From Candidatus Nanohaloarchaea archaeon (GTDB lineage Archaea > Nanohalarchaeota > Nanosalinia > Nanosalinales > Nanosalinaceae): 59,353 bases of DNA. The notes under the pieces were generated by a model. The model had not been told where the DNA came from. It worked only from the letters and a program-made list of their open reading frames with translations, and ran no database searches. Below are positions 5,991 through 36,520 of the stretch, piece by piece. The stretch is taken from assembly GCA_047617745.1 (NCBI GenBank), contig JBLGBN010000003.1, positions 1 to 59,353 on the forward strand. The letters run 5' to 3'. Made by a program: the position numbers and the translations under genes. Every line of letters starts with the position of its first letter. Position 1 is the stretch's first letter.

Positions 5991-5998
5991 TTTTTGAT

Positions 5999-6502
5999 TC
6001 ACCTGTCGACAAGGAATTTCTCAGGTTTTTCGTCCATGTCGATGAAGTTGTCGGCTGCTTCTCTGATCTCCTTGGCGCTGGACTTACCGAAGCTCATGAC
6101 TTCTACTCTGCATCCAAGAGATTTCAGGTGGTCAACAAGGACTGCGAAGTCGCCGTCTCCTGTGACAAGTACAACTGTATCAAGTTTTTTGGCTTGTTGT
6201 ACCATGTCTACTGTCATGCCGAGGTCCCAGTCTCCTTTCTTCTGTCCGCCGTAGAACTCCTTGAGTTCTTTGGCTTTGACTTCGTATCCTATTCTTCTCA
6301 GTGCCTCAAAGAAGTCTTCCTCGTCAGGTGTATCCGCCTTGATAACGTACGCTGCTGCGCGAACAAGATTTCTGTTCATCACTGCGGCGTCGAGAAGTTT
6401 CTCGAAGTCTACTTTTCCATCATATAGGTTTTTTGCGCTGTAGTACATATTTTGGACGTCTACATAGACGCCTACTCTTTGATCGTCGTGTATATTTGTC
6501 AT
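5999..6502 (-). CDS. NYN domain protein (LabA/DUF88)
   Basis: VYVDVQNMY, KGDWDLGMTVD and LVTGDGDF motifs. Confidence 0.9.
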   Translation of the reverse strand: MTNIHDDQRVGVYVDVQNMYYSAKNLYDGKVDFEKLLDAAVMNRNLVRAAAYVIKADTPDEEDFFEALRRIGYEVKAKELKEFYGGQKKGDWDLGMTVDMVQQAKKLDTVVLVTGDGDFAVLVDHLKSLGCRVEVMSFGKSSAKEIREAADNFIDMDEKPEKFLVDR

Positions 6503-6578
6503 TTTACTAACTTACCTCTATTACGAGAAAATCGATTGAATAATCGATCCTTTTCAGTAAAAAAGACAGCTACGATAT

Positions 6579-7508
6579 TTAAAAGCCTATTCTCTCCATG
6601 AATTTTGGCTCGCCATGAAGATACATGTCAACGTAGAGTACCCCCATAAACTGGCGTACAAAGTAGTAAACCCCTACAAGCATTACTGCCTCAGGGGAGA
6701 CGTGTACAGCCAGGAAGAACGCAATCGCCACGTTTCGTGATGATGAAATAAATCCGATAGCCCGGGACTCTTTCTCATAGAATCCTGAAAGAATTCCCAG
6801 TACATGAGAGTATCCAAAGGTTAGAATACTGAAAGCGGCGAAGAGTAAAGCTGCTATAAGGAGCTGTGATACATAAATTACGCCATCTGCCTGAAGTATA
6901 AGTTTTGCCTGTACCAGCGTGATCAGTGTTATAAGCCAGAAAGCCAGTTTTGAGAAATGAATCCTCAAGTCCTCAATCAAGTTATTTTCATAGTTCTGTG
7001 TAACAATACCGATCAAGAATGGGGCGACCACAAAAACCATGTTCTCCATCATAAGCGTGTAATCAATTTCCAGAGGGAAAAGCAGGAGCAAAACCGGTAC
7101 AAAAACAAGTGAGGCAAAAATACTGAAAGTACCTGAATAAGAGGCTAGATCTCCATCTGCCTTAGCCATGTTCGACCATATCTTTGGCGAGCTTAAAGCC
7201 GCTCCCGAAGCACCAAGTACAAGGAAGACCTCTCCTATGTGTCCGGGAACAAAGGAGAAGATGTATGCGATCGCCGGCACCAGAGCATAGATGGCTATAA
7301 GTGACACGGAAAGCTGGCTGCCTTTATTCCTGATCGCTTTGAAAAACCCTAGATCCAGGTGCAGCCCTACAAGGAAAAACAGTGACGCCAGTAAAAAAGT
7401 GAACAGAACATTGGATAACACCTGGCCCGATATGAAATAAGATACTGCCCCCGCAGAAACAACGAGAAGGGCGAGCTCCAGATCGGTTTTCAGACCATGA
7501 AATGGCAT
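6579..7508 (-). CDS. bile acid:sodium symporter (BASS/ACR3-like) family transporter
   Basis: About 9-10 TM helices; LFFLVGLHL, AKADGDLA and SSRNVAIA segments. Confidence 0.7.
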   Translation of the reverse strand: MPFHGLKTDLELALLVVSAGAVSYFISGQVLSNVLFTFLLASLFFLVGLHLDLGFFKAIRNKGSQLSVSLIAIYALVPAIAYIFSFVPGHIGEVFLVLGASGAALSSPKIWSNMAKADGDLASYSGTFSIFASLVFVPVLLLLFPLEIDYTLMMENMVFVVAPFLIGIVTQNYENNLIEDLRIHFSKLAFWLITLITLVQAKLILQADGVIYVSQLLIAALLFAAFSILTFGYSHVLGILSGFYEKESRAIGFISSSRNVAIAFFLAVHVSPEAVMLVGVYYFVRQFMGVLYVDMYLHGEPKFMERIGF

Positions 7509-7578
7509 GGATGAAAATGGTCAAAGCCGGTTTATTAATCTACAAGCTTAATACATTTTGAGATCCAACTAACAGTTC

Positions 7579-7860
7579 ATATCTGCCTTCAAAGCCGAAG
7601 AAGAGTTCAAGAACCAGATTAAAAGTTACCTTAATGAAAATTACAGTGGCGGATTCGCGGTAGATGTCGAACTGGATTACGAGAATAGAATGTCCCGCGT
7701 AAGCGTTTTCTACAGTAGAAAAGAGGAGGAATTCACTGGAATAGGGCGATTTGTTGATGAAATAATAGAAGAACTGGGAATAGAAGAACCAAGTTCGGAA
7801 GCAGACTTTAATGAAGAAGATAACATTTACGAGATTTCAGTGCTAGATAGAGCCGTATAG
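7579..7860 (+). CDS. hypothetical acidic protein with apparent ATA start (not in ORF track)
   Basis: Open frame ISAFKAEEEFKNQIKSYLNENYSGGFAVDVELDYENRMSRVSVFY...EISVLDRAV* fills the intergenic gap. In-frame TAA at 7570-7572. TTAATA box about 27-32 nt upstream. Confidence 0.55.
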   Translation: MSAFKAEEEFKNQIKSYLNENYSGGFAVDVELDYENRMSRVSVFYSRKEEEFTGIGRFVDEIIEELGIEEPSSEADFNEEDNIYEISVLDRAV

Positions 7861-8817: not shown

Positions 8818-9243
8818 ATGATCGGTGGAAAACTTGACAAAGTTGAGGAAATAAAGAACTATAGTTTCCAGGAAGAGTTTACCTCAAGAGCGGTAGTATC
8901 GCTTGAACCTGAAGAAAACCGGAGCTTGAAATACGGTTTACTTAATGTTACGGAGGACGCTACCGGAAAGGGAGAACTAGCCTACACCATAGAGGCGGAG
9001 GAGTATCCCGATCTGGAAATTTCGTTCCTGCTGCAGGATGTCCCTCAGAAGAGAATTAGATTTCTGGAAGCGGTTTCACAGGGTCATAGCTTTGATGTCT
9101 GGAGCAAATTTTACTCCGGAGATTACAACGATTCGCCTCTTGAAGAAAATATTATAGATGGGGGCTTCGGCGATGATCAACTACCGGAAGAATACAGGGA
9201 ATCTCTAAATGATTTCCTTCACGACGTGATCTGGGAGGAGTAA
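8818..9243 (+). CDS. hypothetical protein
   Basis: 141-aa acidic ORF. Confidence 0.65.
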   Translation: MIGGKLDKVEEIKNYSFQEEFTSRAVVSLEPEENRSLKYGLLNVTEDATGKGELAYTIEAEEYPDLEISFLLQDVPQKRIRFLEAVSQGHSFDVWSKFYSGDYNDSPLEENIIDGGFGDDQLPEEYRESLNDFLHDVIWEE

Positions 9244-9275
9244 ACGAGATAAAAACCAGGTTACAACCTATCATT

Positions 9276-9602
9276 ATGAGTATCTACGAAGATCTGAAAA
9301 ATCTGGAAGAAAAAATAACCGGTGAAGGTTATACGATTGACCGGTTCGAGGTACGTGAACGGGCAGATACCTACAGTGAGAGCGGAATAAACGGTAGAAC
9401 AGCGCAGAGGGCGGTCGGCAGGAACCCTCTAGAAGTGCTTGAGGACTGGAAAACCGTGGATAACCAGGACTACATAATCGAGGTATTTCTCACTGGCAGA
9501 AACCCGCTAGACAGGGTGCTTTACGATCCAGAGAAACAGGAAGCAGAGTACATCAGTTTCTCTAGCCAGGATCCCTCTCTAGAAGAGCTTCTGGAAGAAT
9601 GA
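9276..9602 (+). CDS. hypothetical protein
   Basis: 108-aa acidic ORF with ATGA overlap into the next gene. Confidence 0.65.
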   Translation: MSIYEDLKNLEEKITGEGYTIDRFEVRERADTYSESGINGRTAQRAVGRNPLEVLEDWKTVDNQDYIIEVFLTGRNPLDRVLYDPEKQEAEYISFSSQDPSLEELLEE

Positions 9603-10324
9603 GACTAATCTCACTAGCCCCTTCAAACACCGAAATCCTGTACAAAATTGATGCAGGAGATCAGATAGTTGCGACAACAGGCCTATGTGATTTTCCCAAG
9701 GAAGCCGCCGGCAAACCAGATGTAGGCGGGTGGGTAAATCCTGATATTGACGAGATAGAATCCTATAATCCTGACCTTGTCATCGCATCCGACGACCTGC
9801 AGGATAGAGCGGTGGAAAATCTAGAGGAGCGCGGCCTGAATGTCTTACAGGTGAAGCCTCACAGTTTAGGAGAGGTATTTGACAGTATAAGGCTGGTAGG
9901 TGAAACTGTCGGGAAAACCTCAGAGGCAGAGGACCTTATCAACAGGATGAAATCCGAGATTAAATCAGTTGATCTGAAGGGCGAGAGGATATACTGCGAG
10001 GAGTGGATGAACCCTCCAATGGTCTCCGGCAACTGGATCCCGGAACTGATAGAAGAGGGCGGCGGCGATTACTTCATTCAAGGCGGAAGAAGCAGGGATT
10101 TCAATACTGGCGACCTGAAAAAGTTCGATCCCGGATATATTTTCCTGAATGTCTGCGGGGCGGGAACCAGAGCGGAAACCGAAAAGGTAAGTGACCGGGA
10201 AAAATGGGAGAATATACAGGCAGTAGAAAAAGGGAATGTCTATGTCATTGACGACGCGCTTCTGAACCGGCCTGGACCCAGACTTACTGAGGGCCTGAAA
10301 CAGATTGAGAAGAGGATTTCCTAG
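9599..10324 (+). CDS. cobalamin/Fe-siderophore-binding protein (BtuF-like), no signal peptide
   Basis: RLISLAPSNTEIL, CDFP, PDLVIA and RPGPRL motifs. Confidence 0.85.
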   Translation: MRLISLAPSNTEILYKIDAGDQIVATTGLCDFPKEAAGKPDVGGWVNPDIDEIESYNPDLVIASDDLQDRAVENLEERGLNVLQVKPHSLGEVFDSIRLVGETVGKTSEAEDLINRMKSEIKSVDLKGERIYCEEWMNPPMVSGNWIPELIEEGGGDYFIQGGRSRDFNTGDLKKFDPGYIFLNVCGAGTRAETEKVSDREKWENIQAVEKGNVYVIDDALLNRPGPRLTEGLKQIEKRIS

Positions 10325-13507: not shown

Positions 13508-14386
13508 ATGGAGTGGTTCCTGGCAACATTAGCAGCCGCTCTAATTTGGTCAGCTACAGGGATAGTCGCCAAGGAACTGATGGATCAGGACTCCAGTCTA
13601 GTTTACTCCTTTCTTTACTCAACACTAGCACTGGTTTTCTACACACCTGTCTTCCTGTACCTTGTTTCATCAGCTGAAATATCGCTAAGCTTTTTTACGG
13701 TAGGAGCTTTCATCGTATCCGGATTCGCCAATATTTTCGGTATAACTGCGTACAATTACTCGATAAAACTTGGAGAGCTATCCCGCGTAATTCCCTTCAC
13801 GAAGTTGAACCCGGTCTTTACAGCTATAATTGCGGCAGCTTTACTCGGAGAAAAAATGACGCCGACCAGAGTAACAGGTATCTTACTGGTCACAGTCGGC
13901 AGCTACGTTATACTTGAAGAAAAGAACAGAAACTGGAGACAGCCGTTCAGAAGCTTCATCAAAGATAGAGCACCGAAAGTCGCCGTGCTTTCCGCAGTAA
14001 TTTTCTCAGTCGCAGCGGTAATGGACCGGTACGCGGTACAGGCTTTCCAGCCCGAAGTTTACACTTTCATGATCTACCTGTTCATGACCACAGGACTATC
14101 GGTTTACATATTCGGCCAGAGACCGGAACTTGTGGATCAGATTATCCCGGACCTGAAGAAACACCGGCTCAAATACGTTTTTACCGGGGCAGGCGCTGCC
14201 CTGGCATCCTATCTCATATTCTTCGCATTCTCAAAAGCACCCGCCTCCCGAGTAATACCAGTACTGCAGATACAGGTCCTGATCTCGGTAATCGCTGGAG
14301 TTCTACTATTTGAAGAGGATAATTTAAAGCAGAAACTTATCGGCTCAGCGATACTAATCGCCGGAGTTGTGCTGGTTGCGTTGTAA
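13508..14386 (+). CDS. EamA/DMT family transporter
   Basis: Two EamA repeats, 10 TM (LSRVIPFTKLNPVF...LLGEK; SRVIPVLQIQ...LLFEE). Confidence 0.9.
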   Translation: MEWFLATLAAALIWSATGIVAKELMDQDSSLVYSFLYSTLALVFYTPVFLYLVSSAEISLSFFTVGAFIVSGFANIFGITAYNYSIKLGELSRVIPFTKLNPVFTAIIAAALLGEKMTPTRVTGILLVTVGSYVILEEKNRNWRQPFRSFIKDRAPKVAVLSAVIFSVAAVMDRYAVQAFQPEVYTFMIYLFMTTGLSVYIFGQRPELVDQIIPDLKKHRLKYVFTGAGAALASYLIFFAFSKAPASRVIPVLQIQVLISVIAGVLLFEEDNLKQKLIGSAILIAGVVLVAL

Positions 14387-14422
14387 CCATTTAAAGAAAT
14401 TACCTGACTACATCATTCATAC

Positions 14423-14494
14423 GCCCCGTTGGCTCAGCGGTAGAGCGCGTCCTTGGTAAGGACGAGATCCCGGGTTCAAATCTCGGACGGGGCT
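14423..14494 (+). tRNA. tRNA-Thr(GGT)
   Basis: Acceptor GCCCCGT/ACGGGGC; anticodon arm CGTCC-TTGGTAA-GGACG; T-loop TTCAAAT; no encoded CCA. Confidence 0.95.
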
Positions 14495-14575
14495 TCGCCT
14501 TTTCAAAAGAACTCTGTTCTGTTTGTTGTTATCTCAAAATAGGCCGTTATTAGTCTTGGCGTCGCTTTAATTATA

Positions 14576-14929
14576 ATGTCTACAGAAGATGTTTTAGAGA
14601 GAAATGAAGATTCTTTGGAGTCAAAGATAGATTATATTACAGCAAGTGCAGAGAGCTGGCAGGAAGTTTATGAAGAATGCTTGGAAGATCCTTTGGAGCA
14701 TGAAGAAGAGGAGTTGGAGGAATTGGTTGAAGGCTACGCTGTTTTAATAGGGCAGATCCATGTAACTTACAATATAATGGCAAGTACAGGAAAGCAGGAA
14801 TAAGCTGAGCTCATGCTTGATACTTTTGAAGATGTTTCACAGACACAGCACGAATATTCTACAGAAGGCAGAGAGTTAGTTGGAGATACGCCTCTTGATT
14901 TGTTCAAGGAGGAATATGGTTTTCAATAA
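14576..14929 (+). pseudogene. hypothetical protein interrupted by an in-frame TAA (14801-14803)
   Basis: The same frame continues as AELMLDTFEDVSQTQHEYSTEGRELVGDTPLDLFKEEYGFQ* with the same acidic composition. Confidence 0.55.
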
Positions 14930-15067
14930 AGATTTTACAAAATTAAACATCGAGTTTCTGCCCAATATTTCTCTAGCTGAGAATGTCAGTGAACAGGAAA
15001 TGAATATCGCAGTAATGAAATAGTTGATAGATGGGAGCGAAAAAACTCCTTACTGCCTCTACTTCAA

Positions 15068-15370
15068 TCAAATATATTCAGGGACAGAACTCTGATTTGC
15101 TCTATCGTAGGCCTCTTGATAGTTGTCTGGCCAGTTTGTTGGATCGATTATATACATTTCCTGGACGCTTGAGCCAAAATCTTCTAGTTTCTTTTTTCTG
15201 TCGCCGGGACTGCAGTGTGTTTCTACTTCGATCACTGTATCAGTGCTTGCGTCGTCAAGAGCCTTGCATATCATGGATTTGATGAATCCGTGTTTTACTC
15301 CGCCTTTGAACTTTACGGCTTTGACTTCTTTGTTGTGAAAATCAAAGTCTTTTTGTTTCATCCGGAACAT
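15068..15370 (-). CDS. hypothetical protein, possibly a PD-(D/E)XK-like fragment
   Basis: H..IK..IC..L and VIEVET segments; weak similarity only. Confidence 0.4.
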   Translation of the reverse strand: MFRMKQKDFDFHNKEVKAVKFKGGVKHGFIKSMICKALDDASTDTVIEVETHCSPGDRKKKLEDFGSSVQEMYIIDPTNWPDNYQEAYDRANQSSVPEYI

Positions 15371-15495
15371 GCATTTCCTGTAGTCTGTAGTTGTCTATGT
15401 GAAAGTCTCTACTTCTGAATGGATTCTGCGGGACATGAAAAATTTTTCAACTTGTAAAGATAAAAAGTGAGAGGCCTTCACATTTTTCCTTTATC

Positions 15496-15933
15496 TCAGA
15501 TGTATTCCTCTATGTCTTTATCTAGATTTCTTGGGTTAACTGTCTCAGGAAGTATTTCATTTATTTTCTGAAGTTCATTCTCTCCATTCCTGTCCATGAT
15601 TATCTCTGTGTTGTTTTCAGCTAGTTTAGCGAATTCTGCGATGAATTGGAGACAGTTTCCGCAGGGCCTGATGCTGTCAGATTTCTCTGCCGTCACATAT
15701 ACTGCTTTAAAGCTGTATTCTCCGTTGCTTACAGCGCTAGTGATGGCGTTCTGCTCTGCACATGTGCCATTTCCATTAACCATTCCGTCGACTACACAGC
15801 CACTGTAAATCTCGCCTGAAGAAGTGAGAACTGATGCTCCTACAGGAAAGCCATATACTGTAGTGTAGGAGTTTTCCATGGCTTTTTTCGCTGCTTTCTC
15901 CAGTTTTTTGACGTCCTTTTGATCTGTTTCCAT
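15496..15933 (-). CDS. cdd: cytidine deaminase family protein (homotetrameric type, divergent)
   Basis: FPVGASV, CAE and PCGNC zinc motifs. Confidence 0.85.
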   Translation of the reverse strand: METDQKDVKKLEKAAKKAMENSYTTVYGFPVGASVLTSSGEIYSGCVVDGMVNGNGTCAEQNAITSAVSNGEYSFKAVYVTAEKSDSIRPCGNCLQFIAEFAKLAENNTEIIMDRNGENELQKINEILPETVNPRNLDKDIEEYI

Positions 15934-15936
15934 TTT

Positions 15937-16896
15937 TTAATCTACCTTTACCACGTAAGAGGCCTCTTTTGGAACTTCGGACTTGAATTTCTCAAATTTT
16001 TCTTCTGCGTCTGGCTCTACATCCGTCAGTCTTTTGTTAAGACTTTTGATTTTTGGATCAACTATTCTGTGTTTCCGTGTGACTTTGAATCCATATTCTC
16101 CATTATCTTCTATAGTTAATCCGTTTCTGATTCCCTGGAGTTTCTCATTTAATTCCGAATCTTGAGATAGTTTGTCCATAACTTCCTGATCTGTCGTGAA
16201 AAGATCTTCTTCAGTGATAACTCCTTCATCAAGGCCTCTGGAGAGAATGTTTTTCATCAGCATCTTCGTTCCCTCGCTCTTTTTATCGAAGAAAACTTCC
16301 TTGTTCAATTTGAAAAATAGATTCATCACTTCTGACGCTTTTTCCTTGTCTTTGGCGACGATCAATCCGTCTTCAGTTGTAAGGCCTTCAAGCACTCTAT
16401 CGACTGTTTCCTGATCGATGAGGCCTGCCTTGTACAGATCTCTCAACGTGTAATCAAGCCTGTCCGCGCATATATCAGGCCTGTCTCTCTCAAGTATTCC
16501 GAAGTTCTCCTCATCGAAAATATATTCGGGATCGTATCCGTGTTCCTCTACTAATTCATCAAGCCCATATCTTTCAACGAATCTTTCGTGATGATCCTCG
16601 TGAAACGTTTGATCTCTTCTCTCAAAAACTTGATCTGCCAGATGACTGAAAGCTGTATGGCTTATATCGTGGACAAGGCCTGCTATAACTTCGTCTTCGT
16701 CCGCACCAAATTTTTTACACAGGATTGCAACGCCCAGACTGTGCTCGAATCGACTCGTATCCATCTCGGGTTTGACAAGAAAGTCGGCTCCGTTCTGATG
16801 TACTTTCTTAAGTCTCTGCATTCCGGGATTTTCTATAATTTTTTTCTCAAGTTCAGTGAACTGTACTTCGCCGTAAATCGGATCTTCGTATTTCAT
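15937..16896 (-). CDS. HD-domain phosphohydrolase (COG1078/SAMHD1-like dNTPase family)
   Basis: DPIYG, MQRLKKVHQ, SRFEHSLGV, HDISHTAFSH and DRLDYTLRD. Confidence 0.9.
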   Translation of the reverse strand: MKYEDPIYGEVQFTELEKKIIENPGMQRLKKVHQNGADFLVKPEMDTSRFEHSLGVAILCKKFGADEDEVIAGLVHDISHTAFSHLADQVFERRDQTFHEDHHERFVERYGLDELVEEHGYDPEYIFDEENFGILERDRPDICADRLDYTLRDLYKAGLIDQETVDRVLEGLTTEDGLIVAKDKEKASEVMNLFFKLNKEVFFDKKSEGTKMLMKNILSRGLDEGVITEEDLFTTDQEVMDKLSQDSELNEKLQGIRNGLTIEDNGEYGFKVTRKHRIVDPKIKSLNKRLTDVEPDAEEKFEKFKSEVPKEASYVVKVD

Positions 16897-16898
16897 TC

Positions 16899-17471
16899 CT
16901 ATTCAAATACCTCGTAAGCAAACTCTCTAACCTGTTCATAGGCCTCTTCAAGGCCTTCATCATTTTCTATCACTATGTAATCGATTCCATGCCTGTCGTA
17001 TATCTCGAAGTGATTATCCCTCACATCATCGTAAAACTCCAGTATCTCCTCGTCTCCTTCCTCAAAATGAGGGCTTCTCTCCCATATATCCTGTAAAGGC
17101 ATATTCAGGAAGACTGCATAAATATCCACATCACTGTGTTCGCTAAGAATTTCCAGATACTCACTCTGTTCATCTATCAGCGACTCATCAGCGTTCTCCA
17201 TACTGTGCGCCAGACAGCCAGGATGCCACGTTTCGATAACTGCGTGATCCATATCATCAGTCATTAATTCTCTATCTCTAGCTGCTTCATTGACGTGGAT
17301 AGCTTCCTGGAAAGCATGGCTTCCGGCCTTTCCCCAGTCCTCGCCATTTTCATCGATCAATTTCTGGGCGATCTCAGGGAAATAATTGAAGCCATCTCTT
17401 TCTTCAAGCGTCTCCCCGAGACTGGATTTCCCGGCAGTATGTACACCGTTCAAGGCGATTACTTTATCCAT
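16899..17471 (-). CDS. P-loop nucleoside/nucleotide kinase-like protein (AAA_28-like)
   Basis: VIALNGVHTAGKSS Walker A at the N-terminus; TGATG overlap with the upstream RNR gene. Confidence 0.7.
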   Translation of the reverse strand: MDKVIALNGVHTAGKSSLGETLEERDGFNYFPEIAQKLIDENGEDWGKAGSHAFQEAIHVNEAARDRELMTDDMDHAVIETWHPGCLAHSMENADESLIDEQSEYLEILSEHSDVDIYAVFLNMPLQDIWERSPHFEEGDEEILEFYDDVRDNHFEIYDRHGIDYIVIENDEGLEEAYEQVREFAYEVFE

Positions 17472-19237
17472 CAATCCTCATCCTTGAGATCCATCGGCTG
17501 ATCCTGATTTGAACCGTTCCTGTAAACAGTCATCCCGTTCAATCCGGCGTCGTAGGCCTTTAGATAGACGTCTTTAACTGCTTCAGGATCCACATCTTTA
17601 GGCAAGTTAATCGTCTTTGAAACGCTTTCATCGACGAATGCCTGGGCCTCCACAAGTACGTTGAAATGCTCTCTATGCCCGATCTCAATGGCTGTCCTGA
17701 ACACGTCTTTTATTTCCTGAGGAATATCCAGTTCCTGACAGCTACCGTTTTCCCTGACTTTTTCGATCACTTCTTCAGCATCCACATCTCTGTGTTTCTC
17801 CAGTGCTTCACGGAACTCATCGTTGACATCTCCGTACCTGTCTATAAGACTGAAAATCGGCTCAATCTGCTGACTTGTATCAAACGTCATAGCTGACCGA
17901 CCTGTCGGAGGTAAGATAACCGTTGTACTGTTCCTTAAACCATGTTTCTCGATCATCTTATCCAGGCCTCTCCAGTCGGCTTCCGTTATTTTCCTGCTCT
18001 TCTTGTCTCCAAACTTACCAGTCAGGAAATTCCGGCCTTCATCAGCGTACTTGGAGCTGCTCCACCCCTCAAAATTTCCTCTCTGACCTGAAAGTTCCAC
18101 AGAGTACTTCTTGCTGTGATAGTTGATGAAGGAAAGCGTGTCTTTCAATAACTGATTTCCTTCTTCGCTGTCGTATTCAAGTCCGTGCTTGGAGAGTAAC
18201 TTGCTGTAGCCACAGTAACCGATACCTATCTTCCTGCTCTTCCTCATGGCTTCGACTGACTCTTCATGACTGTAATGATTGAGACTGTACTCAAGCACGT
18301 CGTCAAGAAATCTCGTGATCAATTTAGAGGCCTCTTCCAGTGCATCCCAGTCAATACTTTCTCCATTACTGAATCCAGCGATGTTAATGGAAGCGAACTG
18401 GCATGTCTCTCCCTCTGCAAGCCCTACCTCTCCACATGGAGCGACTGAAACATAGTTCAACTCTTCGTTAAAAGGCCTCCTCCTGTTCATGTTGTCGAGG
18501 AAGATCAGCCCTGGATCAGCACAGTCCCAGGCACATTTCACTATAAGATCCATCAATCCGCCGGAATCAACTTCCTCCCCGTCCCTGAGTTCAAACTTCT
18601 CTTCGTTCCTGTAGGCCTCTATAAATTCATCGCTCATATTAACTGAAAGATTGAACTTCCAATCGATCTCCGGATTCTCGTGTTTCACTTTGATGAATTC
18701 CTTGATAGCGGGATTGTTTGCTTTCATTATCCCCATGTTGCCTACGGGCCTGTGCTGTTCATCTCTTTCAAGACCTGTTTTCGCTATCTCCTGCAGATCC
18801 ATCAACACACTCATAGGATTATCCGCTTTATCCAGTGCGAATCCTGTCCCCATTCCCTCTTCGTGATAGTTGTCGACTTTTTCTTTGATCTCGCTGTAAT
18901 CATTGTTCAAATCCACGGGAGGTACTGAACAGGCACTGAGAGGCCTCTCATCGAATCTTCCGGCGTTTGTCATTATCGGCGTGGAAGGTACTATCTTCCT
19001 CTGCATAAACAGTTCAAGCATCCTGTCTGCGAACTCCAATGCTTCCTCAGTTTCTGTGCCAAACTGTTTCTCAATGTCTACAACTACTGAAGCTACTCTC
19101 TCCAGCATCTCAGTCGGTGATTCGTCCTCTGCCAGTATGTCGCCGTCTCTCATGATTTTTTCTGCTTTTTTCGAGGGATTGAACTCCCCTGAAGCTGAAA
19201 CCCTGTCCTTCTGTGTCATTGTAGTTTGTTCTGTCAT
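17471..19237 (-). CDS. nrdJ: class II (adenosylcobalamin-dependent) ribonucleotide reductase homolog, divergent
   Basis: PSTPIMTNAG, LSAC, FNLSV, DPGLIFLD, PCGE, PTG, SKTINLP and GMTVYRNGS. ATG at 19237 follows an AGGTGG SD. No beta-subunit gene nearby. Confidence 0.85.
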   Translation of the reverse strand: MTEQTTMTQKDRVSASGEFNPSKKAEKIMRDGDILAEDESPTEMLERVASVVVDIEKQFGTETEEALEFADRMLELFMQRKIVPSTPIMTNAGRFDERPLSACSVPPVDLNNDYSEIKEKVDNYHEEGMGTGFALDKADNPMSVLMDLQEIAKTGLERDEQHRPVGNMGIMKANNPAIKEFIKVKHENPEIDWKFNLSVNMSDEFIEAYRNEEKFELRDGEEVDSGGLMDLIVKCAWDCADPGLIFLDNMNRRRPFNEELNYVSVAPCGEVGLAEGETCQFASINIAGFSNGESIDWDALEEASKLITRFLDDVLEYSLNHYSHEESVEAMRKSRKIGIGYCGYSKLLSKHGLEYDSEEGNQLLKDTLSFINYHSKKYSVELSGQRGNFEGWSSSKYADEGRNFLTGKFGDKKSRKITEADWRGLDKMIEKHGLRNSTTVILPPTGRSAMTFDTSQQIEPIFSLIDRYGDVNDEFREALEKHRDVDAEEVIEKVRENGSCQELDIPQEIKDVFRTAIEIGHREHFNVLVEAQAFVDESVSKTINLPKDVDPEAVKDVYLKAYDAGLNGMTVYRNGSNQDQPMDLKDED

Positions 19238-19253
19238 GATTAAATCCACCTAG

Positions 19254-19601
19254 CTAGAAACGCGTAGAAGTCACCCTTTCCGTGTTCCCGCAGTCCGCGC
19301 ATTCGTACATCAGGAAATTGTCTTCATCTCCTCTCGCTGCAGGGAACTCGTGCTGTATCGCTCTGTCGTGTTCGCAGTCACTGAATTCGTAATCTTTCAG
19401 AGCATCTTCATCGTATCTTTCAAATATCTCTGTAATCCCTTCCTCTTCCTGGTCTGATTCAAGCGTCCATTCAATTCCGAGCTCTACATCAGCGAACTCA
19501 TCACAGTCCTCGCAGTACCCTATAGAGGCCTCTCGCCCGTCTTCTGTCTCGACGGTTTCTCTTTCAAGTAAGGCTCCACAGTCTTCATGGAAAAGACTCA
19601 A
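19254..19601 (-). CDS. TFS/RPB9-like double zinc-ribbon protein
   Basis: N-terminal HxxC..CxxC ribbon; C-terminal C.H...ARGDED..MYECADCG, matching the TFS RSADE...CxxCG pattern. TTG start overlaps the kinase stop. Confidence 0.7.
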   Translation of the reverse strand: MSLFHEDCGALLERETVETEDGREASIGYCEDCDEFADVELGIEWTLESDQEEEGITEIFERYDEDALKDYEFSDCEHDRAIQHEFPAARGDEDNFLMYECADCGNTERVTSTRF

Positions 19602-20179
19602 ATCAGATCAGCCTCCATCATAATATTCTCTACGACGTTTTCCACGCCATTAATAGCCTCTATCCTGGTCATATCGTATCTTTCTACTGCTTCTTCGTAC
19701 TCCTTTTCTGCCTTTTGCGGTCCTAAAACATCTGCATCTTTCCCGTCTGATCCAGTCTCAACCCTCCCTGATTTTCTCTCAACTCTAGTCTGCCGGTCCG
19801 TCCATAGATAGAACATATGATCCGGCTCAATAAGATCAAACTCTTCTACTGCCTCGTACCATCGCCCCGAATCTTTTTCGTCCAGTTCGTTGTAAACTAC
19901 AGTAGTTGGATAGTAGCGATCCAGTACGACATCTCCGCCTTCGGAGAGATGAGCTTCCACCTGATCGCTGACAGCCGAGTTAGAGGCCATGTACATCAGG
20001 AACTGTGTCTGATTGCTGTGTTTAGGCCTGTCAACGTATTCCCTGATCTCTGAAATCCCGGGTCCTGGACTCTCCATGAATACTGCGTCGATTTCTTCCG
20101 CGAAGGCCTCTGCCACGCTTGATTTTCCGACTCCGTCAAGGCCTTCGAATACGAAAAAGTTTCCAGAATCCTGACTCAT
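19598..20179 (-). CDS. tmk: thymidylate kinase family, CMPK2-like
   Basis: FEGLDGVGKS P-loop and VVLDRY motif. Confidence 0.85.
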   Translation of the reverse strand: MSQDSGNFFVFEGLDGVGKSSVAEAFAEEIDAVFMESPGPGISEIREYVDRPKHSNQTQFLMYMASNSAVSDQVEAHLSEGGDVVLDRYYPTTVVYNELDEKDSGRWYEAVEEFDLIEPDHMFYLWTDRQTRVERKSGRVETGSDGKDADVLGPQKAEKEYEEAVERYDMTRIEAINGVENVVENIMMEADLI

Positions 20180-20230
20180 ATCAAGTCAACTTGACTTGAG
20201 CTTTATATATTTAAGTCAAGCCGGATTGAC
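20180..20230 (-). promoter_or_regulatory. promoter of the kinase-RNR operon with three TCAA-N6-TTGA operator sites
   Basis: TATA box at 20202-20209. Sites at 20181-20194, 20186-20199 and 20216-20229. The first two form the perfect palindrome TCAAGTCAA-C-TTGACTTGA. Confidence 0.7.
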
Positions 20231-20257
20231 CAAACTTCTTTGAGAAACATCTGTAAA

Positions 20258-20947
20258 CTACTCAAAATTAAGTGATTCGAGCCCGAACTCTCCTTCTTCA
20301 TTCTCTGATATGCTCCATTCTCCGAAGAACCTGGAGTCGTTGTCTCTGGCTTTCCTTATTATATCTTCAAGTCCAGGGATGATATTGAGTTCATCTAGCT
20401 CTTCTATATCGTAGAAGTCATCACTTTCTTGTTTAGAGGCCTCTATTACAGTGAAGAAGGCCATGTAGTGCTGTGAAAATCCTTCTGAGAACTTGATATT
20501 GTTCCTCATAACGCCTCTGATCTCTGATTCTGGCGATTTCTCCCCGAACTCTTTCTCGAATGCTTCTTCAGCTGATCTCTTGTTTGATTCGTTTTTTTCA
20601 GTTCTTAAAACAGGGCCTCTGTAAGCACCTGGAAACGGATCAAGAGGATCTTCACGTTTCTTCAGGTAAACCTTGTCTTTGTCAAAGATGAAGACATGAT
20701 TGATTATAAGCGGCTGTCTGATCTGCTTGTGTTCAAGGTAGGCCAGATAATTCTTTCCCTCGGCTGTAGTTGAATATTTCTGCTCTTCCTTCACTATAAG
20801 TTCTTTATCTTGGAGTTTGTTCAGATGGAATGAAATTTTGTTACTGCTTTCGTTTCCCTGGAGCTCTGAGAATCTTAATTTATTTCTGTAGCCGAGTTTC
20901 TCAAGTATCGATCTCTGTATTTTATGCAGATCAATTTTTTCCATCAT
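20258..20947 (-). CDS. winged-HTH plus degenerate Nudix-domain transcriptional regulator
   Basis: LRFSELQ....NKISFHLNKL....LI.K....Y..T.EG ArsR/HxlR-like wHTH; Nudix-like KREDPLDPFPGAY...E......EEAFEKEFGE. Confidence 0.75.
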   Translation of the reverse strand: MMEKIDLHKIQRSILEKLGYRNKLRFSELQGNESSNKISFHLNKLQDKELIVKEEQKYSTTAEGKNYLAYLEHKQIRQPLIINHVFIFDKDKVYLKKREDPLDPFPGAYRGPVLRTEKNESNKRSAEEAFEKEFGEKSPESEIRGVMRNNIKFSEGFSQHYMAFFTVIEASKQESDDFYDIEELDELNIIPGLEDIIRKARDNDSRFFGEWSISENEEGEFGLESLNFE

Positions 20948-22218
20948 TAAACACCTTGATTATTATTTTGTAATGCATTAAAAAGAGCTTTACTGTTGAT
21001 TTTTGAATCCAGATCTTCAAATTTTTCAGCAAGTCTATCTGACGGTGCTTTCTCACTCTCTACTCTGTCAACAAGCAGATCCAGATACTCTCCATCCTTT
21101 ATATTGTTTAATTCAAGGCCTTTTCTCGCCTTCTCTATCTCATCCAGAAGAAGATGGGAGGCCTCTTTTTTAACTCCTTCAGGGCTGTAAAGCATGGAAT
21201 CAAATCCATCTCTCAGTGCATTTTCCCTGTTCTCATTCACTTTTTCAATATCAAGAAGTTCTTCACTGTGGTGCTGTGCATACAGTAAACGTCCTATACA
21301 GAAGGCATGGACTGCAACGTCTTCAATTATAGAGGGCTGAGTTGAAGCTATACGTGACTCCACAACTAGATCATCTCCAATAAACTTTATTCTTGAATCC
21401 TTCCAGAAACGCGACACACTATCAGAAATAAGTTTTTCCTCTCTCCCCAGGATAAACGGCCAGGAACCGACTCTATCCAGATAATCTTCCATATCCAAAT
21501 AATAAGTTTCCAGGCGTCCTATCTGCTTATCCTCGGTGTTGTGAGATTTACTCCAGAGTATCATTCTCAGATCTGAGAGACCTGTGTCTTTCCTTTCAAG
21601 AAAACGGGCATTTCCAGAAAGAGCTGAGATATAAGGGCTTATCATATAAACGTAGTTGGCTTTCTCAACTGCATCATCAAAATCAGAGGCCTCTAAGTTC
21701 GTATGGATGGCAGATATAAGGCTTACAGATTTAGAATCGCCTATATCCGCTTTACTTTTTTCTCCAATCAATTCGTTTCTTTCTACATTATAGTAATCGT
21801 TTATCTGTCTGAAGAACTTTTTACTGCTCAACTTCAACTTATCAAGAGGCCTGAAAACGTTTGTACCTGATCTTATTACTTCAAGATTGTTTTCATCGGC
21901 TCTGGCCTCAATTTTATTTTCCTCTGATTTAATAGAACTCCTTAAGTCTTCAAAAGAACCTAAATTAACTGGCTCTGTGGCTATTTCCACAGAATCTATT
22001 CCCAGTTCTTTTTTAGCTCTATCAAACTCTTTTATTGTATTGTCTCTTTTGTTTTCATCTTCAATAATAGTAATATCGTCGTTTAAGAGAAAGTACTCTG
22101 TCTCTACTCCTGCCCTGATTCTTTCCCTGTCTTTACTGAATCTATCTTCGTTATCCATTATTTCATCTGCCTTGTTCTCAAAAACAGATTTGATCAAATC
22201 ACTTTTTTCTGATCTCAC
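20947..22218 (-). CDS. glutamate-cysteine ligase family 2 (GCS2/YbdK-like carboxylate-amine ligase)
   Basis: AGVETEYFLL, KELGIDSVEIATEP, SAIHTNL, ALSGNA, WKDSRIK and VVESR. GTG start; TAATG overlap with the regulator. Confidence 0.75.
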   Translation of the reverse strand: MRSEKSDLIKSVFENKADEIMDNEDRFSKDRERIRAGVETEYFLLNDDITIIEDENKRDNTIKEFDRAKKELGIDSVEIATEPVNLGSFEDLRSSIKSEENKIEARADENNLEVIRSGTNVFRPLDKLKLSSKKFFRQINDYYNVERNELIGEKSKADIGDSKSVSLISAIHTNLEASDFDDAVEKANYVYMISPYISALSGNARFLERKDTGLSDLRMILWSKSHNTEDKQIGRLETYYLDMEDYLDRVGSWPFILGREEKLISDSVSRFWKDSRIKFIGDDLVVESRIASTQPSIIEDVAVHAFCIGRLLYAQHHSEELLDIEKVNENRENALRDGFDSMLYSPEGVKKEASHLLLDEIEKARKGLELNNIKDGEYLDLLVDRVESEKAPSDRLAEKFEDLDSKINSKALFNALQNNNQGV

Positions 22219-22224
22219 TTTTTA

Positions 22225-22248
22225 GTCAAGTCCTGTTGATATTTAAAA
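22225..22248 (-). promoter_or_regulatory. TCAA-N6-TTGA operator and TATA box of the GCS2-regulator operon
   Basis: GTCAA-gtcctg-TTGAT (22225-22240) lies between the TTTAAAT box and the start codon. Confidence 0.65.
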
Positions 22249-22467
22249 AGATGTCTGTATCTGGTTGAGGATTTTCTTCTGACTGTTCCAGTAGCTGCAT
22301 CATGCCTTAACGTGTTAAAGGATCTTGATGTAATAGAGGTCCGTACGCAGTCATCCTCTCCTGACAGATATATGCCTGAAACAGTTGACATGGAAAAATC
22401 GAGGAATAGGCAAGATATTGAGAGAAAACAAAGAAATACAGGAATTTAAATAAAAAGAAAAATAAGC

Positions 22468-23037
22468 TTGTCTGGGTTCATAATAATTTTAATCTTCATA
22501 AAAGTAACAGTTTTTTTACGAGCCACAAACATCACTAAGAAATGTTCAGAAAAAAAGTTCTTCATATCAACAGTACTCTCTATCCCCGTACTTTACTTCT
22601 CAACCTTTGTTTCAGGCCTGTTAAAATACAGTCCGATACAGTTCACAGGCAGTAACTTTATCGTGCCTGTATTTTCCGTTGTAATTTTTATCTACGGAGG
22701 ACTGCCGTTCCTGAAGATGGCGAAAGGAGAACTCGAAGACAAGAAGCCGGGAATGATGGCTCTGATTTCACTCGCAATTATAGTGGCTTTCACATACAGT
22801 ATAGCCTTGCTCTTTATTCCAGAGACCTCTTCACTTTTCTGGGAGCTCGTTACTTTAATTGATATAATGCTTCTCGGCCACTGGATCGAGATGAGAAGCG
22901 TGAGACAGGCCTCGTCCGCACTTGATGAATTAAAGGAGTTAGTGCCAAATACAGCGGAAAAGATAATCGAAGGCGATGCTGAATCTCGGGGAGAATCAGG
23001 CAGGGAGAGAACAACGAGGGAATTGCAGAGATTATAG
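22468..23037 (+). pseudogene. truncated heavy-metal P1B-type ATPase (CopB-like N-terminal TM region)
   Basis: YGGLPFL, KPGMMALISLAI and FWELVTLIDIMLLGHWIEMRSV; ends before the actuator/P domains. Confidence 0.8.
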
Positions 23038-23288
23038 GATTAGTTTTCCTCTAACCTTCTTAATTATTTTCTTAAGAATTGTCTACCTAAGAAGACATTA
23101 GACCTTTCGGAGTTCACCATTTCAAATGTGAGATTTGGAACTCAGCATTCCAAGCTCAGAAAGGGGCTTTCATTAGTTTTGTTCAAATTTTCCTGCTTAA
23201 ATGAATCTTCCTTCTTTGCTTGGTTTTTTATCTCAGCCACTTCAACATTTAAGTTTTAATCAAGAAGTAACAAACAGGTGAAGATAAA

Positions 23289-23966
23289 ATGGAATACAGT
23301 TTGAACTTAGATGGGGGAGCTCTTGAAGATGCAAACGAGAAGATGTTAAATGGTGAAATACCAGAACCGAGTGAAATGCCGAGTAGAGAGAACCCTGAGG
23401 AATATAGTACTCATATTTACAAGACGACGTTTGAGGACGCAGGTATGGAAAGAGAACCATTCAGGAGAGTGTTCGAAGAGTTCGATCAGAGAGAAGAGTT
23501 TAGTTTTGATGGAGAAAATCCTGTGGAAGCTCTAAATAACGAAGTTGAACGCAGAGATGAACATCCGACAGACTGGCAATCTTATAATTCTGGAGATGAA
23601 GTATTTATCGCGACAGAAATGCCCGGAGTAAATGGGAATCTCTGGAGCGAGTACGGCCCGCTTTCTGCTTTAGACGACGCGGCAGTATTTTCTGCTCCTG
23701 CCTCGATATATGTTGATGTAGGGGGAGAAAAAGTAGTTAATTCGATAGCGAGTATCACGGAACAGACTGGTGCACCATATCTTGAATCTAATCCGGAAGC
23801 GGTCCAATATGAAGAGGGAGGTGATATCTTCACAGGATGGTTCACGGTTCCACCTACTTATACGGAAGAAAAACTTGAAGAGAGCGTAGACGCCTGGGTG
23901 GACCGAGTTAGCCAAGTCAGCGAACTTCAAGAAGACTTGATAGAAGTTATGGATAGGCATCCATAA
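23289..23966 (+). CDS. hypothetical protein
   Basis: 225-aa acidic ORF, AGGTGA SD. Confidence 0.75.
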   Translation: MEYSLNLDGGALEDANEKMLNGEIPEPSEMPSRENPEEYSTHIYKTTFEDAGMEREPFRRVFEEFDQREEFSFDGENPVEALNNEVERRDEHPTDWQSYNSGDEVFIATEMPGVNGNLWSEYGPLSALDDAAVFSAPASIYVDVGGEKVVNSIASITEQTGAPYLESNPEAVQYEEGGDIFTGWFTVPPTYTEEKLEESVDAWVDRVSQVSELQEDLIEVMDRHP

Positions 23967-24038
23967 CATCCTCTTTCTTTTAATCTCCTAAATCAATGCA
24001 GCAAAACTATTTAATCGTTACTAGTAGGTAACATCTTT

Positions 24039-24590
24039 ATGTCCGAAGAGGTTACTGTTGATGAGGCTTTAGATGCCCTAGTTGAAGATGGAGAAAAAAT
24101 AGTCACAGAAGAAGATCAGAGTCTTCCACGACTAAAATTTGCATTTCAGAATTATGAGGACCTCCCTCGATACAAAGCACTGTTTTCAGGTGAAAGAAAA
24201 AAGAGATATGAGAAATGGAAAGTTGATGAAGCTTTAACTGACCTTCGAAGCGCAGTTGGTTCTTGGGCTGAAGAAAATGGCTATGAACTACGTGATGGTT
24301 TAACCGAGGTTTTCGATGAACCTATTGATGAACAATTAATTGCTAACCTCGAAGGTGAAATAAATACCGAAGAAGAAAACATAGAGTTTGGTTTTTACGG
24401 AGGCCAGAAAATAATAACACTATCCACCAACCCTTCAACCCACACAGATAATCCTGGAATGGCAATAACAGCTCACTACGATAATTTTAACGGAAACATG
24501 ACAGAAGAATACAGAGAACTTAACGCGATAACTGAAGCTGTCCTGTCTAAATATGGGCGAATAGTGAAAAGTGAACCCGACTGTCTGTGA
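24039..24590 (+). CDS. hypothetical protein
   Basis: 183-aa acidic ORF. Confidence 0.7.
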   Translation: MSEEVTVDEALDALVEDGEKIVTEEDQSLPRLKFAFQNYEDLPRYKALFSGERKKRYEKWKVDEALTDLRSAVGSWAEENGYELRDGLTEVFDEPIDEQLIANLEGEINTEEENIEFGFYGGQKIITLSTNPSTHTDNPGMAITAHYDNFNGNMTEEYRELNAITEAVLSKYGRIVKSEPDCL

Positions 24591-35782: not shown

Positions 35783-36520
35783 ATGGCCTCCAAAAATGAA
35801 ATAGAAACCATAAAAAAGCTAGCAAATCAGGGAAAATCCGTTAACACAATTAAAAATAAATTAGAATTGCCTAAATCAACAGTTTACTATCATTTCAGAA
35901 AAGAAGTTGGACAAAAACAGAAAGAAAAACAAATCAGTATACCACAGGACCAAGATTTCAAAGGAGAACTCTGTGGACTATTCGCAGGAGATGGCGGATT
36001 CCAAAAAGACAAAAATGGAAGCTACCGGATAAGATTTTATCTAAACTACAACTACAGATACTGGACACTTCTAGCCAATTATCTAGAGAAAAGACTAAGC
36101 AAGCAACCTAATATATACAAAAATCCGAGATCCTCTAAAACAATTCTAAATTATTGCTCTAAGAAGCTATACAAATTCCTAAGATCAAATTTGTGGTGGG
36201 AAAAAGATAAGACTTCAAGTATTTGCTTAAAGCCGGAGAAAGATTTCAGCAGAAACTTCAAAACTGGTTTTCTAAGAGGTTTTATAGATACAGATGGTTA
36301 TAGAAGGCCCGATCACAAGCGTTATGTATTTACAAGCGCCAGCGATGATCTTATCAAAAATACAAGCAATATCTTGACTTCACTAGGCATACAAAACACC
36401 TCTTTTAATGAAGAAGATGAACGCGGCTATATGACCAAGCATAAGATACGTATAACAGGAGAGGATGTAGACAAATTCAATTCTAAGATAAAACCAAGAA
36501 ATCCTAAGAGAAGATACTAG
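35783..36520 (+). CDS. free-standing HTH plus double-motif LAGLIDADG endonuclease
   Basis: QGKSVNTIKNKLELPKSTVYYHF HTH; ELCGLFAGDG and GFLRGFIDTDG motifs; Lys-rich and AT-rich. Confidence 0.85.
   Translation: MASKNEIETIKKLANQGKSVNTIKNKLELPKSTVYYHFRKEVGQKQKEKQISIPQDQDFKGELCGLFAGDGGFQKDKNGSYRIRFYLNYNYRYWTLLANYLEKRLSKQPNIYKNPRSSKTILNYCSKKLYKFLRSNLWWEKDKTSSICLKPEKDFSRNFKTGFLRGFIDTDGYRRPDHKRYVFTSASDDLIKNTSNILTSLGIQNTSFNEEDERGYMTKHKIRITGEDVDKFNSKIKPRNPKRRY

Follow-up and report, generated by a model that had tools for sequence, protein, structure and literature searches.

The window, a stretch of 59,353 nucleotides (nt) from a Candidatus Nanohaloarchaea archaeon (assembly GCA_047617745.1, contig JBLGBN010000003.1; genome G000 below), carries on its minus strand a gene for a class II ribonucleotide reductase (RNR)-like protein whose finger loop has alanine in place of the canonical asparagine. 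The gene is an accessory paralog, additional to the housekeeping class II RNR (NrdJ), and belongs to a large Asn-less class II branch that is apparently undescribed so far. The protein is read here as an accessory, allosterically unregulated thiyl-radical nucleotide reductase, a reading to which we give about an even chance.

The Asn-less protein and its clade

The gene can be translated from a GTG at 19249 or from an ATG at 19237; the latter gives 588 amino acids (aa), the size of a 100%-identical database protein (P0002), and agrees with the span of the original prediction, 17471-19237. In Pfam, the open reading frame (ORF) matches PF02867 (1.6e-81, profile positions 53-523) and PF00317 (3.6e-9), and its best sequence match among solved structures is the NrdJ of Thermotoga maritima (7e-60). 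It scores 381.7 bits against TIGR02504 (NrdJ_Z equivalog), under the cut-off of 399.95, and is not a member of NCBIfam NF005401 'ribonucleotide reductase-like protein' (137.9 bits, cut-off 906). An AlphaFold2 model built on the clade alignment (pLDDT 90.2, pTM 0.91) predicts the RNR ten-stranded alpha/beta barrel with a finger loop, and Foldseek places this model closest to T. maritima NrdJ (1xjf/3o0o, complexes with adenosylcobalamin (AdoCbl) included; TM 0.85, 28% identity). The protein is not a class I alpha subunit, having Pro where the N-L-C-x-E motif has Leu and standing, with its clade, apart from class I in the tree; no PF00268 match to a class I beta subunit occurs anywhere in the assembled genome. 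Likewise, no PF13597 (NRDD) match to a class III RNR was found in G000, and the RNR-like protein itself matches PF02867, not NRDD. The features of the gene are as follows.

17471..19249, minus strand: NrdJ-like (class II RNR-type) catalytic subunit of the Asn-less clade, 592 aa from GTG 19249
18977..18988, minus strand: apical phosphate loop P-S-T-P (canonical reducers of nucleoside diphosphates (NDP), P-N-S-P; of nucleoside triphosphates (NTP), P-A-G-R)
18929..18931, minus strand: C107 (PLSAC), reducing Cys of strand beta-A, aligned with canonical LSAC
18821..18826, minus strand: junction A142|D143 of a 14-residue deletion, from the alignment with eight canonical NrdJ
18737..18781, minus strand: remodelled loop 2, KTGLERDEQHRPVGN, with RPVGN invariant in the clade and the residues before it variable
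18419-18445, minus strand: finger loop VAPCGEVGL, from the translation
18428..18442, minus strand: APCGE, with A270 for the canonical Asn, C272 as putative thiyl radical site, and E274
18401..18403, minus strand: C283 (GETCQF), reducing Cys of strand beta-F, aligned with canonical EACNLG
18212..18214, minus strand: C346 in GIGxCG, an extra Cys invariant in the clade (canonical GLGxMG)
17891..17914, minus strand: distal phosphate loop LPPTGRSA (canonical IAPTGT[IT]S)
17858..17875, minus strand: SQQIEP (canonical TSGGxEP)
17510..17530, minus strand: beta-J motif TVYRNGS, common to canonical NrdJ

The roles assigned to the catalytic residues are those known from the E. coli and T. maritima RNRs. 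Translation and the alignment of clade members with eight canonical NrdJ sequences from the surveyed loci bear out the original prediction that APCGE replaces NPCGE, and that the thiyl Cys, the Glu and both redox Cys are kept: C272, E274, C107 and C283 are invariant in 34 aligned clade members (37-83% identity), among 52 invariant columns. The altered PPTGRSA and SQQIEP near the phosphate site, also read by the original prediction, are features of the clade as a whole. At the deletion junction, GMGTGFALDKA|DNPMSVL lacks 14 residues of the canonical 'LRPKGDxVxxTGGxxSG' with no compensating insertion, and the deleted stretch is presumably loop 1, the effector (specificity) loop. In the case of loop 2, the canonical 'KQGGxRRGA' gives way to a variable stretch ending in RPVGN. 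The proposed absence of loop 1 extends to the whole clade, and the clade-wide deletion, together with the variable N-terminal half of loop 2, argues for the predicted loss of allosteric specificity control, as far as sequence can indicate it.

The apical P-S-T-P is nearest to the NDP-type loop, yet lies outside the motifs PNSP, PAGR, PSMR or PQGSP that PMC8365446 lists for 1,655 NrdJ sequences. The chain terminates 12 residues past TVYRNGS with no Cys there, as the original prediction had it for the shuttle pair, and the canonical RNRs of the same and related genomes have C-termini with CxxC or six-Cys tails. The absence of a tail is not strictly class-defining, because 26% of the class II C-termini without a zinc finger also lack Cys in the data of PMC9669993. 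Section 2.5 of the same source gives NPCXE as the finger loop of 3,175 of 3,347 class II sequences and leaves the exceptions undiscussed.

The loss of Asn is not a private mutation. Among the best 120 homologs (38-100% identity) of 797 hits from 8,000 scored candidates, the finger loop reads AP in 116, AT in two, SP in one and DP in one, with Asn in none (0/120), and no homolog down to ~35% identity has Asn at this position; the contrary outcome named by the original prediction, NPCGE in all close homologs, is therefore not what is seen. A scan of one genome per species gave 161 confirmed stretches, from which 80 loci were kept; the loop is readable in 78 of these (72 AP, 6 PP, Asn 0/78), and the other two comprise a partial ORF and a TGA-recoded gene. 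In addition, when 1.84 billion representatives of 50%-identity clusters were searched with a profile, 21,973 hits at E<=0.001 resulted. In 149 of the best 150, which were read, 73 have AP, 7 SP, 5 PP, 2-3 VP and 1 AT, as against 40 with NP, and 20 were unparsed. These non-Asn representatives lack the RP loop, contain 0-4 Cys (mostly 0-2) within their 40 C-terminal residues, and have PPTG wherever the motif was located, with P0208 (APTG) as the single exception; the NP representatives have APTG and usually six Cys. The clade spans at least about 88 distinct 50%-identity clusters, and the residue that takes the place of the Asn in it is a small one, Ala in most cases and Ser, Pro or Val in fewer.

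In a quick IQ-TREE analysis of 69 rows, the clade is monophyletic (49/49 rows, SH-aLRT 100, stem length 1.13) and placed inside class II, separate from class I. The alignment and tree called for by the original prediction hence recover APCGE and the accompanying features as marks of a clade. Between the RNR-like gene and clade member L002, the nonsynonymous divergence (dN) is 0.103 and the synonymous divergence (dS) 1.71, a dN/dS of ~0.06; since non-Asn loops are clade-wide and this ratio is low, the clade signature is under purifying selection rather than decaying. A catalytically dead pseudo-enzyme or a decaying nrdJ duplicate would account for the missing residue, taken as a criterion of functional RNRs, and for the score under the NrdJ equivalog cut-off. 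Such an origin is extremely improbable, however, in view of the low dN/dS, the 52 invariant columns in 34 sequences with all catalytic Cys and Glu among them, the number of distinct clusters and the conserved operon partners. The features recur in every member looked at, so that neither chance nor sequencing error explains them, and decay or artefact was rejected on purifying selection and this clade-wide recurrence.

The distribution of the clade is wide but sporadic. By record titles, the hosts are Nanohaloarchaeota, many lineages of the candidate phyla radiation (CPR)/Patescibacteria, Micrarchaeota and Dependentiae, together with metagenome-assembled genomes (MAGs) labelled Gammaproteobacteria or Pseudomonadota, a Planctomycetota MAG and a Croceitalea. 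About 35 further hosts are actinomycetes (Nocardia, Amycolatopsis, Saccharothrix, Streptoalloteichus, Saccharomonospora, Actinokineospora, Pseudonocardia and Actinomadura), whose branch clusters with a Saccharibacteria sequence in the quick tree (SH-aLRT 95). At locus L026, on a Nocardia sp. chromosome, the RNR-like gene (5899-7701) and much surrounding DNA lie under the host-typical GC content at third codon positions (GC3>0.8), which is consistent with recent horizontal acquisition. Another member, L023 (G093:C2:27081-28391), in a Peribacteria-labelled MAG, contains 12 in-frame TGA codons, and these suggest an alternative genetic code, not a broken gene. In the viral collections, IMG/VR has one locus at 26% identity, and the best of 4,668 phage records reaches 30.9% and is canonical; a viral auxiliary gene was dropped, the clade being essentially absent from both. 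The papers found leave an Asn-less NrdJ clade undescribed and have neither APCGE or APCAE in an RNR context nor an RNR-Nudix-Gre/TFS module; RNRdb-derived supplementary tables could list such sequences. As the Asn is used as a pass/fail mark of 'bona fide' RNRs, the clade is filtered out of surveys instead of being studied.

Accessory status and the mobile island

The assembly of G000 (834 kb, 34 contigs, 88.6% complete) has a single PF02867 match and neither an NrdD nor a class I beta subunit, as would be expected if the RNR-like gene were the organism's only, housekeeping RNR; in addition, 7 of 50 other clade-holding genomes have nothing else, all seven with an adenosyltransferase. This reading is very unlikely, and a sole RNR was rejected on synteny with same-genus genomes. 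In G074 and G071, a canonical NrdJ of ~1,000 aa has on one side genes matching contig C34 (3.4 kb) and on the other genes matching the initial 600 nt of the window. As these flanks map to C34 and to the window start, the expected locus corresponds to an assembly gap, and on gene order the housekeeping RNR of G000 probably falls into the break that separates contigs C34 and C3. A canonical-type NrdJ match is present in each of the four remaining genomes of the genus (in G072 a 373-aa partial frame, profile positions 1-201), and the Asn-less clade in none of them (0/4). Furthermore, in two of the seven genomes with nothing else, the adenosyltransferase gene PduO stands at a contig start, which fits the same artefact, and G000 by itself would score as 'only' plus PduO although its canonical nrdJ is most likely in the gap. 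That this genome seems to have a single odd RNR results from an assembly artefact together with a mobile island. The canonical nrdJ encodes 1,002 aa in G074 and lies in a 1,923-aa intein-bearing frame in G071; the window start (1-620) falls within a gene that, in same-genus genomes, has canonical nrdJ among its upstream neighbours.

Most of the 70 genomes of the phylum have canonical NrdJ (~430-440 bits, full profile). The Asn-less type occurs in four of them, G000, G010, G062 and G031 (partial in the last), and the other three also have canonical NrdJ. Across hosts in general, another RNR is present in 48 of the 55 clade-holding genomes checked. In the first five, among them a closed Saccharibacteria genome and a Babeliaceae chromosome, a second alpha of canonical type is always present. 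In the 50 further genomes, a set that includes G124, flagged unpublished, a full-length canonical class I/II alpha is found in 30, NrdD in 10, a third RNR-like type of ~565 aa in three, and nothing else in seven. The third kind of ORF (~565-577 aa; PF02867 in three pieces, 2-129, 170-334 and 373-522; for example G075:C15:34007-35356) is neither canonical NrdJ nor Asn-less clade, and is held by G030, G031, G050, G061, G062 and G066 of the same phylum and by G078, G083 and G103 of the CPR.

The RNR-like gene lies with its whole operon on an island of 8.6-10 kb.

14484..23194, no strand: accessory island with the whole operon (by synteny, extra DNA ~14.4-24.6 kb)
14423..14494, plus strand: tRNA-Thr(GGT) at the left island edge; the same tRNA flanks the block in G062

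The window genes at 14576-24590 are without counterpart in G074 and G071, and in G074 the distance between the flanking genes is 1.3 kb. The island block, composed of the GCS2-like, winged-helix, Tmk-like, TFS-like, RNR-like, AAA_28 and HD genes, recurs in G062 and G010 (52-83% identity), with no match in G010 to the GCS2-like, winged-helix and TFS-like genes. Among public contigs, one of 8,711 nt covers exactly 14484-23194, and in a saltern metagenome run of another study (X13), coverage is limited to 14368-23240. The island is mobile. A joint in run X13 that leads from 23084 to 14531, going back 8554 (depth 30, side 62), is a hint, from one contig, of a circular or tandem form. The island borders showed no att-like direct repeat, and Pfam identified no integrase among the island ORFs even at E<=5. 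At the left edge, the bin with the tRNA-Thr (window 14368-14834) has ~10-20 times the depth of its flanks in four metagenome runs, as would be expected of a tRNA common to many organisms, and assembly graphs break there.

Partner genes of the clade

On the island, the TFS-like and Tmk-like genes lie upstream of the RNR-like gene, and the AAA_28, HD and cytidine deaminase genes follow downstream, tightly spaced or overlapping.

20947..22218, minus strand: GCS2 / carboxylate-amine-ligase-like protein
20258..20947, minus strand: winged-helix protein, 229 aa, C-terminal half without assignment
19598..20179, minus strand: extra Tmk-like nucleotide kinase (TIGR00041 75.7 bits, under the 83.25 cut-off)
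19254..19601, minus strand: extra, divergent TFS/RPB9-like double zinc-ribbon protein, 115 aa, its start overlapping the Tmk-like stop by 4 nt
16899..17474, minus strand: P-loop kinase-like protein (AAA_28), its start overlapping the RNR-like stop by 4 nt
15937..16896, minus strand: HD-domain protein, N-terminal half like SAMHD1-type deoxynucleoside triphosphate (dNTP) triphosphohydrolases
15496..15933, minus strand: cytidine deaminase (NF004064 96.7 bits, above the cut-off of 74)

The island kinase and zinc-ribbon protein both duplicate housekeeping genes. A housekeeping Tmk on contig C6 scores 142.8 bits, as against 69.9 for the island kinase, and a housekeeping TFS on contig C16 scores 47.8 bits, as against 16.4 for the island protein, which matches PDB 1qyp (E 0.025), PF01096 (E 0.032) and Atlas TFS clusters (0.98). 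In view of these zinc-ribbon matches and the housekeeping TFS elsewhere, the Cys-rich 115-aa ORF (19254-19601) was rejected as a detached NrdJ redox tail. A complex prediction of the TFS-like and RNR-like proteins gave no answer (score 0.01), which is evidence neither way. The AAA_28 protein has a PHROG thymidylate kinase match (1.5e-9), and the same neighbour cluster occurs in 25 of the 80 loci; the HD protein matches SAMHD1 chains (~1e-10) and 2hek (7e-16). A Nudix domain suspected by eye in the winged-helix protein (20258-20947) is unsupported by Pfam.

Flanking ORFs were clustered over the 80 loci (79 fetched, plus the window). A MutT/NudG-like Nudix protein is encoded in 44 loci, mostly directly downstream of the clade gene on the same strand, and P-loop kinase/CYTH or Tmk/dNK-like clusters occur in 33, PfkB in seven and HD in five; at least one of the Nudix, kinase, PfkB and HD clusters is found in 64 of the 80. 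Two homologs, P0055 and P0091, have fused NUDIX or CYTH domains.

A GreA-like protein is encoded in 15 of the 80 loci, with a kinase also present in all 15. In four of five CPR genomes, this neighbour is a second, weaker paralog (58-63 vs 79-93 bits). GreA and TFS have acidic tips. At the coiled-coil tip, the neighbours carry D-x-W-H-D-N in 10 of 10 aligned, and four housekeeping copies carry D-L-S-E-N. Members of this GreA-family subfamily adjoin a Tmk-like kinase and the Asn-less gene in CPR loci, for example at L074:4538-5044, L070:4432-4938, L028:4302-4790 and L017:5024-5782. In archaea, the TFS-like gene occurs in two of the three nanohaloarchaeal islands compared. Non-homologous, analogous RNA-polymerase secondary-channel factors are linked to the clade in the two domains, GreA-like in bacteria and TFS-like in archaea.

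Some partners resemble components of defence systems. The best PADLOC match of the Tmk-like protein is PDC-M51B (6e-32), followed by a match (2e-19) to VakA, presumably a viperin-associated nucleotide kinase, an expansion of the name that the literature search did not confirm. Nudix neighbours match PDC-S07 at ~1e-9, one neighbour kinase weakly matches an anti-phage dCTP deaminase model, and actinomycete loci are flanked by XRE/DUF5753 regulators. A conflict system of any chemistry, in which a mobile cassette manipulates the nucleotide pool for antiviral defence or for the element's own replication, would gather these matches together with the SAMHD1-like dNTPase and the cytidine deaminase. 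It would also suit an island that is absent from two same-genus genomes, adjoins tRNA-Thr, is common to other genera, and is covered alone, with its 23084->14531 joint, in the saltern metagenome. We consider this role rather improbable: the RNR-like protein has no PADLOC match, viral collections are essentially devoid of the clade, searches of the island turned up neither an integrase nor an att repeat nor a known defence core gene, and the PADLOC kinase matches may reflect no more than Tmk homology. A conflict or mobile-element role is compatible with either of the chemistries weighed below. A known defence system was dropped on the missing PADLOC match of the RNR-like protein.

Elsewhere in the window, the region 8818-10324 contains a Peripla_BP_2 substrate-binding protein (weak BtuF, IsdE and TroA-like matches) with two small unassigned ORFs, and is conserved in same-genus G074; the protein may be a cobalamin or metal uptake component. 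A free-standing LAGLIDADG-domain ORF (35783-36520; PF14528 1.3e-16) is followed by a thioredoxin-reductase-like flavoprotein (36752-37681; Pyr_redox_2, 1.3e-44).

Proposed function and known systems

A reductase is the most economical reading because the Cys/Glu/Cys set is invariant, the apical loop is NDP-like, the class II beta-J motif is kept and deoxynucleotide enzymes lie nearby; the invariant radical and redox residues apart from the Asn, together with the PSTP loop, fit ordinary reduction. The analyses establish the clade membership, the residue pattern, the purifying selection, the fold, the accessory and island status and the partner genes; the reductase activity, the NDP substrate, the lack of regulation, the cofactor and the reductant are inferred. 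The protein would act as a thiyl-radical nucleotide 2'-reductase, probably on nucleoside diphosphates as its apical loop suggests, and would be free of dNTP-effector control of specificity. The Asn-ribose contact would be replaced by backbone, water or another residue; in the class III RNR of T. maritima, backbone and water contacts take the place of the Asn and Glu contacts, according to PMC4493059. Simultaneously, the active-site disulfide would be re-reduced directly, without a tail. The island partners (kinases, SAMHD1-like dNTPase, cytidine deaminase and TFS paralog) could supply and trim the deoxynucleotide pool, so that hydrolysis and re-phosphorylation would control the pool in place of allostery. 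By homology, AdoCbl is the default candidate for the radical generator, and G000 encodes a PduO-type adenosyltransferase that could supply the cofactor. An adenosyltransferase is likewise encoded by all seven genomes with nothing else (six PduO-type, one CobA-type), in which the clade could be the working AdoCbl enzyme.

Several observations weigh against a reductase of this kind. E. coli N437 mutants are reportedly inactive in turnover, and the RNR-like protein has no redox tail, nor was a known in-trans substitute found. PASV, as its preprint describes the filter, requires N437, C439, E441 and C462, removed 286 of 29,401 RNRdb representatives for missing one of them, and discards RNRdb sequences without N437. 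Another RNR stands beside the clade almost always, even in genomes of 0.7-1.7 Mb, and this near-constant co-occurrence suggests a non-redundant job. Since the island kinase and TFS are extra, divergent copies, a parallel pathway seems likelier than simple redundancy. Furthermore, adenosyltransferase genes track canonical NrdJ rather than the Asn-less clade: among 17 small genomes that have a canonical alpha, 11 encode PduO, often adjoining that canonical gene, but an adenosyltransferase is present in only one of the 13 genomes with NrdD or the third type, being absent from 9 of 10 and 3 of 3, respectively. Of five genomes whose second alpha scores very high, four have neither adenosyltransferase type, one of them the complete Babeliaceae chromosome; the second alpha was read as class I (NLC) for G003 and G004 only.

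Some of these points would be met by the same fold and radical machinery with a changed chemistry or substrate, as the original prediction inferred, which is possible, though doubtful. The substrate could be a non-standard nucleotide, the room left by Asn->Ala/Pro fitting a different 2' substituent, or the reaction could end in another product (a dehydrated or keto-deoxy nucleotide, for example); processing of the compound would fall to the kinases and hydrolases, and the TFS/GreA-like paralog would handle its effect on RNA polymerase. The loss of Asn coincides with remodelling of all substrate-contacting loops, the clade is almost never the only RNR, and many host genomes lack an adenosyltransferase, while the partners are divergent paralogs of housekeeping genes and an RNA-polymerase factor is linked in both domains of life. 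However, the two reducing Cys are both invariant, and a redox-neutral reaction could do without one of them; the NDP-like apical loop and the neighbouring deoxynucleotide enzymes fit ordinary reduction, and the analyses indicate no candidate alternative substrate or product.

A more specific proposal, which we hold to be unlikely, makes the Asn-less enzyme the core of an unrecognised mobile nucleotide-modifying module and not a deoxynucleotide supplier: the thiyl-radical chemistry would yield an unusual sugar-modified nucleotide, served by dedicated kinases and hydrolases and by a secondary-channel factor. The extra kinases would charge the product, (d)NTP hydrolases would clear it, and the TFS-like or GreA-like (D-x-W-H-D-N) factor would protect or redirect RNA polymerase. 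By analogy, such a module would parallel viperin-type antiviral chemistry on an RNR scaffold, possibly independent of AdoCbl.

If the clade reduces nucleotides, as in the preferred reading, a natural active site can do without the Asn, neither a specificity loop nor a redox tail is required for an RNR to operate, and coupled hydrolases and kinases may keep the pool balanced in place of allostery. These consequences concern a textbook mechanism and can be tested, and expressible homologs occur in cultured actinomycetes. Should the clade have another function, it would represent a new radical nucleotide enzyme, with a link to RNA-polymerase factors in bacteria and archaea that is unexplained.

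Among known systems, prokaryotic viperin offers an analogy only, as a radical enzyme that acts on a nucleotide sugar beside an extra Tmk/CMK-like kinase; it is not homologous to the RNR-like protein, and no evidence of a chain-terminator product was found here. The class III RNR of T. maritima orients the ribose without the class I/II Asn and Glu side chains, but differs in its glycyl radical, its finger-loop motif and its family. In the split NrdJa/NrdJb and the truncated NrdJd, the catalytic chain likewise lacks a redox tail, the Cys-rich domain being encoded in trans or elsewhere, whereas no such partner was found for the RNR-like protein. NrdJd truncated of its Cys-rich domain works only with a small dithiol, as given in PMC5704485 and in section 2.4 of PMC9669993. 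The closest canonical sequence found is NrdZ of Microcystis phage MaAM05 (30.9% identity over 93% of the query), which is nearest to the clade in the quick tree without strong support, and differs in its NPCGE, its LRPAGD loop 1, APTGTIS, SGGIEP and a C-terminal CxxC. Compared with the dimeric, AdoCbl-dependent class II NrdJ of T. maritima (PDB 1xje, 3o0o), the RNR-like protein has Ala for Asn, the 14-residue loop-1 deletion, a remodelled loop 2, PPTGRS, SQxIEP, the extra GIGxCG Cys and no Cys-rich C-terminal domain, but its apical loop comes closest to the NDP type, and the two have in common the barrel, the Cys and Glu of the finger loop, the pair of reducing Cys and the beta-J motif xYRxGS.

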